DNA of 64,000 bases from Schmidtea polychroa (taxonomy: Eukaryota), in the NCBI GenBank assembly GCA_044892525.1, contig CM097886.1:144646001-144710000 (forward strand), read 5' to 3'. The notes below the pieces were generated by a model that was given only the letters and a program-made list of their open reading frames with translations, was not told where the DNA came from and ran no database searches. Each line of letters opens with the position of its first letter. Position 1 is the first letter of the stretch. Positions 3,062 to 3,623 of the stretch are shown one piece after another. The translations under genes and the position numbers were made by a program.

Positions 3062-3454
3062 CTCGTTGGTCGGAGGCCTGCTTCTTCTTTTAATACATTC
3101 AATTTCTTTTCAGTCTATTTTAAAGAATATGAAAATGCACTTGTTTTAGATGAAGTGGTAAGCGACAACCTGATTGCTGATCTTTCTCTACCCTTTATCA
3201 CCTTTTTCTCCATTCGCTGTTGATTTCCACAGAACTTATATATCAATTTTATCAACATCATTATTATTCCTGCTTAAACTACTGTCAAATTGATTAGTAA
3301 AATAAATTTAAACACTAAGCACTCGGCGAATTGATCAACTTTCCTTATGTCTCTCTCAAGAATTCAATTTCAAAAATTTCATTTCATAACATGACCACAA
3401 AAAATCTCATGAGAAACTTCTCATTCGACTTCAAAACCACTTTATCAATGCAAA

Positions 3455-3473
3455 TCACTTGAAACCCAATTTT
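3455..3473 (+). promoter_or_regulatory. Candidate proximal sequence element (PSE) of U6
   Basis: TCACTTGAAACCCAATTTT at about -63..-45, the usual PSE position; begins TCAC like the vertebrate PSE; positional inference only. Confidence 0.35.
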
Positions 3474-3489
3474 CAAACGTTCTCCCCCA

Positions 3490-3498
3490 TTTATAAAA
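3490..3498 (+). promoter_or_regulatory. U6 TATA box (type 3 Pol III promoter); same position in every unit
   Basis: TTTATAAAA at -28..-20 from the U6 +1 G. Confidence 0.8.
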
Positions 3499-3517
3499 CA
3501 TAGAAACTATATCTAAT

Positions 3518-3541
3518 GTGTTGCTTCGGCTTCACATATAT

Positions 3542-3573
<32 letters not shown>

Positions 3574-3623
3574 GGCCCCTGCGCAAGGATGACACGCAAA
3601 ATCGTGAAGCGTTCCATATTTTT
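3518..3623 (+). ncRNA. U6: U6 spliceosomal snRNA, intact
   Basis: 5' stem-loop GTG-TT-GC-TTCG-GC-TT-CAC, ACAGAGA box, AGC triad, GGCCCCTGCGCAAGGATGACACGCAAAATCGTGAAGCGTTCCATATTTT; upstream TATA, downstream T9. Confidence 0.98.

Follow-up and report, generated by a model that had tools for sequence, protein, structure and literature searches.

The window, by which we mean the entire 64-kb stretch (64,000 nt) of the Schmidtea polychroa genome analyzed here, is a single tandem array whose units are placed head to tail (Table 1). It contains 21 U6 5′ starts, and the 20 spacings between them comprise fifteen of 3502 bp, one each of 3500 and 3501 bp and three of 795 bp. At 18 of the 21 starts the U6 sequence is interrupted after nt 52 and the same insert comes next; the other three belong to identical intact U6 genes. 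The perfect genes that a first-pass annotation of the locus had placed at 3518, 11317 and 19116 are confirmed by Rfam at 112.1 bits each, as is its observation that each insert is trailed by 335 bp of U6 upstream DNA and U6 nt 1–52, which is the case in the 17 whole units of the window. The 3502-bp unit is accordingly composed of the insert, beginning after U6 nt 52, followed by these two segments of the U6 locus. Intact U6 genes are seen only at the final unit of a run, and from 19911 to the window end all 13 starts are truncated. Hence, the related proposal that the unit rebuilds an intact U6 gene applies to the last unit of a run (3 of the 21 starts) and fails elsewhere. Downstream of each of the three intact genes, Rfam detects a tRNA gene, tRNA-Lys(CTT), in the opposite (minus) orientation. 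Since no two 795-bp units are adjacent anywhere in the window, a free U6/tRNA-Lys array can only be presumed. Four neighboring truncated U6 copies (37419, 40921, 44423 and 47925) have a common substitution at U6 nt 37, which is consistent with relaxed constraint.

Table 1. Coordinates of the features in and around the first insert, with further copies and higher-order units of the array.
Feature	Position	Strand	Remarks
Insert, U6 sense	68..3182	+	3115 bp; likely 5′ half of a NeSL/R5-LIN-type non-LTR retrotransposon, cut before the RT
T7 run	78-84 in 74..86	+	Predicted Pol III terminator, 10 nt past the junction; putative function
838-codon ORF	116..2632	+	Low-complexity start, ORF1-like domain, linker, first part of the protease fold
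Remaining Ulp1/C48 protease domain	2633..3061	+	Same frame, ends at TGA 3059-3061; Pfam PF02902, E=3e-7
Direct repeat, post-insert copy	3183..3569	+	335 bp of U6 upstream DNA + U6 nt 1-52
TATA-like box	3492-3498	+	In the post-insert U6 upstream DNA
Intact U6 snRNA gene	3518..3623 (also 11317-11422, 19116-19221)	+	Rfam RF00026, 112.1 bits
7799-bp higher-order unit	3570..11368	+	795 + 2 × 3502; identical to 11369-19167
tRNA-Lys(CTT)	3759..3831 (also 11558-11630, 19357-19429)	-	In the spacer of the 795-bp U6-to-U6 interval
388-bp repeat copy behind the native spacer	3977..4364	+	U6 broken after nt 52, where the next insert begins
Unbroken run of 3502-bp units without intact U6	19575..64000	+	12 whole units, one cut by the window end

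The repeat and its junctions

The copy of the repeat behind the insert (387 bp) and that behind the native spacer (388 bp) are 99.2% identical, which is far above chance. They are told apart by a T run that is one base shorter in all 17 post-insert promoters than in the three copies behind the tRNA spacer. The junctions are likewise constant: each of the 18 5′ junctions lies at one base, and so does each of the 17 3′ junctions. Because all the junctions coincide and every post-insert promoter carries the one 1-bp deletion, they point to a single founding junction. The first-pass annotation had also foreseen that a crossover between the direct repeats would excise a 3502-bp circle and restore the native gene exactly. 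The geometry indeed allows this, and the restoration would be exact for the RNA-coding part but not for the promoter, whose T run would stay one base short.

Long terminal repeats are characterized by TG...CA ends and a primer-binding site behind the 5′ repeat. The 387-bp repeat begins in a T run and has no CA end, and the insert does not start with TGG; we therefore rejected an LTR or TRIM identity for it. Terminal inverted repeats were also rejected: in a search listing arms of at least 12 nt, no pair among the 25 longest of 41 pairs links both ends. The repeat is plain, unaltered host U6-locus DNA without LTR ends.

Coding content and relatives of the insert

One long frame runs through the insert, from an ATG at 116 through a TAG at 2630–2632 to a TGA at 3059–3061, beyond which about 40 codons remain up to the junction at 3182. 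The ORF1-like domain corresponds to about aa 260–655 of P0001, and the His, Asp, Gln and Cys motifs are all found in the Ulp1/C48 protease domain. Both stops recur in every copy. The 838 codons are open in 14 of the 17 units; wherever the frame is kept (15 of 17 units), it is this TAG that ends the ORF, although a single such unit has an additional earlier stop. The ORF1-like region joins the protease in frame (2390–2632), and the TAG sits in a variable loop within the protease fold. The N-terminal part of the ORF includes an Asn-rich coding minisatellite of 18/54-bp periods (412–538, in each unit). Two recoding schemes were considered and discarded: a ciliate-type code, as there is just one TAG in 1036 codons, and programmed read-through at a protease tryptophan, as both conserved Trp codons are intact and the two stops are located elsewhere. 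In the region upstream of the first ATG, a branch-point-like motif, the T7 run and an AG (85–86) that lies 29 nt before this ATG together resemble a 3′ splice acceptor, and such a putative acceptor could, in a flatworm, take a spliced leader. As a Pol III stop, the same T7 run would yield a U6-headed RNA of about 65 nt. The non-adjacent units starting at 33971 and 51479 share a T-to-A substitution halfway along the run that is predicted to break the terminator.

Among 8000 scored candidates, the single match to the insert was P0002, a 1344-aa protease–RT protein with 44% identity over 139 aa. A full HMMER scan recovered 45 matches, 16 to the N-terminal (ORF1-like) domain and 29 to the protease, with none spanning both. 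All seven of the 29 protease matches that are at least 700 aa long contain an RT, and in their C-terminal parts we found CCHC and RHD/N motifs in 7 of 7 and a D..K motif pattern in 6 of 7. The N-terminal matches are separate proteins of up to 960 aa with no passing Pfam family; we infer that they are the ORF1 of two-ORF elements, with ORF1 and the protease linked in the relatives. Just past the protease, the relatives display a Gly-Gly(-Gly)-type motif (GSGS in P0002), which we liken to a ubiquitin/SUMO-type cleavage site and which is carried by P0002, P0007, P0008, P0011, P0012, P0017, P0026, P0036, P0043, P0046 and P0049; it is followed by one or two degenerate protease-like repeats. In the window, a damaged motif of this type stands beside the TGA at about 3060–3085.

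The searches for a more complete relative were negative within their respective scopes. No longer fused homologue was present among 3581 candidates, which is weak evidence, and an alignment search with ORF1 gave no match among 7998 candidates. A metagenome scan with the protease gave 121 pattern matches and one of viral contigs 28, none of either being confirmed, and the ESM Atlas offered no usable match to the ORF1 domain. A metagenome scan with an ORF2 alignment kept 80 of 450 loci, all of them distant RTs, with one weak match to the protease-side query and none to ORF1; Rfam detected no RNA gene at the 20 of these 80 loci that were scanned, which are too distant to inform on the target.

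A profile of 12 relatives (1335 positions) aligns to one unit at positions 20–188 only. Some of its matches to the concatenated window reach position 466 by way of the low-complexity start of the next unit, and this portion scores below zero when taken alone. With the same profile, neither an RT nor an endonuclease was found in the six frames of the window. The insert ends about 1,100–1,300 codons before the end of its relatives. Because the relatives extend that much further and the RT is absent, the insert is most likely the 5′ half of a non-LTR retrotransposon of the type with a restriction-like endonuclease (RLE). The designation “R5/LIN-type” expresses a likeness suggested by sequence comparison, as the matches are to unnamed proteins and not to named LIN sequences, and a protease tree with 20 rows has support on just one of its 17 inner branches. 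As for membership in the NeSL/R5-LIN group, an Ulp1-like cysteine protease is present and the best matches are protease–RT proteins, with the RT domain, the C-terminal CCHC finger and the restriction-like endonuclease missing from the window. As the unit has no RT, we file it as a remnant derived from a NeSL/R5-LIN-type element and not as a member.

Variation among the copies and the making of the array

The 17 whole units differ from each other at 0–15 sites (mean 7.8), and this variation is spatially ordered. Divergence grows with the distance between units (Mantel rho 0.61, p=5e-5), and carriers of the 16 shared variants lie next to each other in 46 pairs, where 17.8 would be expected (p=5e-5). 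The four-gamete test is failed by 12 of 120 variant pairs, which indicates exchange or conversion between copies. The three 7799-bp blocks with the intact genes differ from each other at merely 1–3 bases. Head-to-tail monomers with a common junction and local homogenization, by which a transposon-derived macrosatellite is recognized, are thus both found here.

These observations can be accommodated by the following reconstruction, which we consider probable: the array would be a retrotransposon-derived macrosatellite at a U6 locus that arose from one founding junction, followed by local unequal exchange or gene conversion. First, a full-length element would have entered U6 in the sense direction, its 5′ end coming to lie directly behind nt 52. 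Second, a single non-homologous junction would have brought nt 3115 of the element up against an uninterrupted U6 gene at its position -335; this gene might have been the next one in a U6/tRNA-Lys cluster or an empty allele. The RT, the endonuclease and the 3′ UTR would have been lost in this step, together with the severed 3′ half of U6, and the remnant would have been left flanked by the two 387-bp direct repeats. The U6 gene behind the remnant would be intact because it was never cut. Third, unequal exchange between the repeats probably multiplied the 3502-bp unit, and the 7799-bp block was later duplicated whole; the pattern of this step is directly visible in the copies and its mechanism is the conjectural part. 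Circles could be shed as from any tandem array, with nothing in the unit to drive their excision or re-entry. The first-pass annotation had itself allowed for a one-off rearrangement followed by unequal crossing-over, and both the clustering of variants among neighbors and the distance trend support that alternative.

The LIN9_SM-like sequence at the 3′ junction speaks against this reconstruction and favors, as far as sequence likeness goes, a junction made by an enzyme. The native site (3976–3993) ranks first of 1292 spacer and promoter positions against the 18-nt 3′ (28S) flank of LIN9_SM, a score equalled or beaten at 4 of 6190 background positions. The comparison was picked post hoc, by eye, from about six published target sites and two junctions, and it is borderline after correction for this selection (roughly 0.02–0.07 by our estimate). 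If an enzyme did make the junction, the 387-bp repeat could be a giant target-site duplication (TSD) of one aberrant insertion, followed by the same local expansion. The endonuclease would have nicked at -335, reverse transcription would have been primed inside the RNA, whose 3′ half is accordingly missing, and a second cut would have come after U6 nt 52, which would then not be the recognized target. The repeat–insert–repeat layout is TSD-like and a single U6 gene suffices for this course of events. Yet, target-primed reverse transcription normally retains the 3′ end of an element and drops the 5′ end, and the model requires internal priming. Long TSDs are known, with 126 bp for R9 and a median of 900 bp for Dualen-associated duplications (PMC9977147); however, Dualen has two endonucleases, unlike the relatives of this insert. 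Moreover, NeSL elements are described with target deletions (PMC3636483) and the 5′ and 3′ junctions of LIN9_SM coincide (PMC4640811). On balance, we regard a giant TSD as unlikely.

The layout had earlier been interpreted as an att-site- or LTR-like mobile unit that carries its own target. A 3502-bp circle would re-enter other U6 genes by homologous recombination or, in a variant that we add, the RT of the parent would copy a read-through RNA in trans, in both cases rebuilding U6. The geometry permits this, and runs of units finish in an intact U6 at three places. In public sequencing runs, 0.79–0.81 of the window’s words are found in four runs of one study and 0.27–0.49 in four runs of three further studies, these being overall shares; the best of these runs may come from the source sample, twelve rows with small shares (0.06–0.12) were left out of account, and no RNA run was among the runs listed as containing the words. 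Against such mobility, no mobility enzyme was found, and the unit has no element 3′ end for recognition in trans. No recombinase, integrase or transposase was among the Pfam matches of the long ORFs, the scope of that scan, the remaining ORFs of the unit being at most 142 aa. An RT and an endonuclease were not found either, the repeat is devoid of LTR ends, and the insert is most likely a non-LTR retrotransposon broken off after its 5′ half; the comparison to an att site or LTR is not supported. Nor is the notion that the target is recreated at each insertion: as the blocks differ at just 1–3 of 7799 bases, the three “rebuilt” U6 genes represent one event copied as a block. Most starts are truncated, and in 16 of 18 copies the T7 run would be expected to end Pol III transcription 10 nt past the junction. 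Copy relationships that fit only local unequal crossing-over had been proposed as a test against mobility, and it is the pattern of local exchange that the clustering of variants among neighboring units displays. Tandem arrays in general shed circles (PMC3225859), so 3502-bp circles alone would not be decisive. Thus, although the copy pattern leaves room for rare re-entry of a circle, we hold a mobile cassette to be very improbable.

Two further readings concern the copies themselves. The first accepts the junctions as real and ascribes the number of copies and the 7799-bp order in part to misassembly of a repeat that is difficult to resolve. Units 2, 4, 6 and 7 are identical, as are units 3 and 5, and the near-identity of these left units could in part stem from the assembly. 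The right-hand units, however, bear ordered private and shared variants that are not expected of a collapsed or invented repeat, which makes an artefact of this extent highly improbable. The second sees in the units a domesticated, selected gene cluster whose product would be either the 838-aa ORF1-like protein or a short RNA derived from U6, as might be suggested by the retention of 838 open codons in A+T-rich DNA in most units and of the U6 upstream region in every unit. A young remnant would likewise still be open, however, and there is no sign of selection on the insert frame: silent substitutions are not in excess (6 of 22 in-frame changes against 20% expected; p=0.42, with low power), two of the 17 units have a frameshift and one has an additional nonsense change. 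We accordingly give domestication hardly any credence.

Parallels and the putative parent element

The closest likeness is to the planarian R5/LIN lineage of the NeSL clade, RLE-type relatives with an Ulp1-like protease before the RT, as is suggested for this insert. An Ulp1-like protease is reported for NeSL and Utopia-1_TSP, and a junction inside a multicopy small-RNA gene is common to this unit and the target use of the clade: LIN15_SM targets tRNA-Arg, LIN25_SM tRNA-Glu, Utopia U2 and NeSL-1 SL1, with LIN9_SM, LIN24_SM and LIN26_SM targeting 28S (Kojima and Jurka, PMC4640811). Target specificity is said to have diversified in the R5/LIN lineage, and U6 is absent from the targets given in that paper. 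The same source gives for LIN15_SM a sole published 5′ junction about 40 nt from the 3′ junction, and in its S6 Fig a diverged 28S target sequence precedes several LIN9_SM 5′ ends, a published case in which a LIN element carries target-like sequence along with it. The present unit, being devoid of the RT, the RLE and the 3′ end, demonstrates neither its lineage nor its target specificity, and the 5′ junctions do not demonstrate specificity for U6 because all 18 descend from one event.

Maize CRM1TR and CRM4TR provide a precedent for retrotransposon-derived tandem repeats. As proposed here, their monomers came from a part of a retrotransposon by deletion and were expanded and homogenized by local conversion (PMC3648361). 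Unlike them, the S. polychroa unit has a probable non-LTR parent and a coding monomer of 3.5 kb that includes the host U6 promoter and a half-gene. Cassandra TRIM arrays have the same repeat–internal–repeat–internal pattern, with Pol III gene sequence in the repeat and copy number thought to change by unequal exchange; their repeats, however, are true LTRs of a dispersed family (PMC7215508), whereas those studied here are host U6-locus DNA known from one locus. Dada-U6 DNA transposons are likewise mobile DNA inside U6, but they lie at U6 nt 65–70 with a 6-bp TSD and encode a DDE transposase (PMC3706591; PMC8869645), in contrast to a position after nt 52 and a protease/RT-linked protein in the present case. 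Dada-U6 is further recognized by 9-bp subterminal inverted repeats, which are shorter than the arms of at least 12 nt listed in our repeat search. We rejected a Dada-U6 identity, as the site differs, the Pfam scans gave no DDE transposase and all 45 matches are to the ORF1-like or protease part.

Restoration of the target gene is also known from prophages and integrative elements at tRNA genes, where a direct repeat of a portion of that gene leaves one intact copy next to the insert. These elements recombine at short att cores by means of a site-specific recombinase of their own, unlike this unit, in which no recombinase was found and the repeat is 387 bp long. The eukaryotic counterpart of such gene-restoring integration would be a non-autonomous cassette that passes from one U6 locus to another, as a circle or through the RT of a U6-specific R5/LIN-type parent in trans, and remakes both an intact U6 and a fresh target each time, a prospect to which we assign a very small probability. 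If true, such a cassette, moving between loci and rebuilding its target, would amount to a new survival strategy for eukaryotic mobile DNA; nothing here shows such movement.

In the literature covered, the targets of non-LTR elements are rDNA and the SL, U2 and tRNA genes; U6 is targeted only by the Dada DNA transposons. No non-LTR element targeting U6 was found in the literature searched, with Repbase, the original R5/R9 papers and Fell 2025 lying outside its coverage, nor does one figure in passages of PMC13580325, PMC5035012 and PMC4494074. Hence, the 5′ end of a retrotransposon in U6, known from one event, may be new.

On this reading, the array illustrates cleanly, and at a young stage, how a site-specific retrotransposon that was broken can turn into a macrosatellite together with a host gene, in consequence of which 18 of the 21 U6 promoters stand before truncated genes. 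The parent element offers the more useful lead. That it represents a U6-specific non-LTR family is a possibility to which we give slightly less than an even chance. If so, a lineage that is studied for site-specific gene insertion would gain, through an element with a U6-specific restriction-like endonuclease, a target in an RNA that is among the most conserved of eukaryotes.
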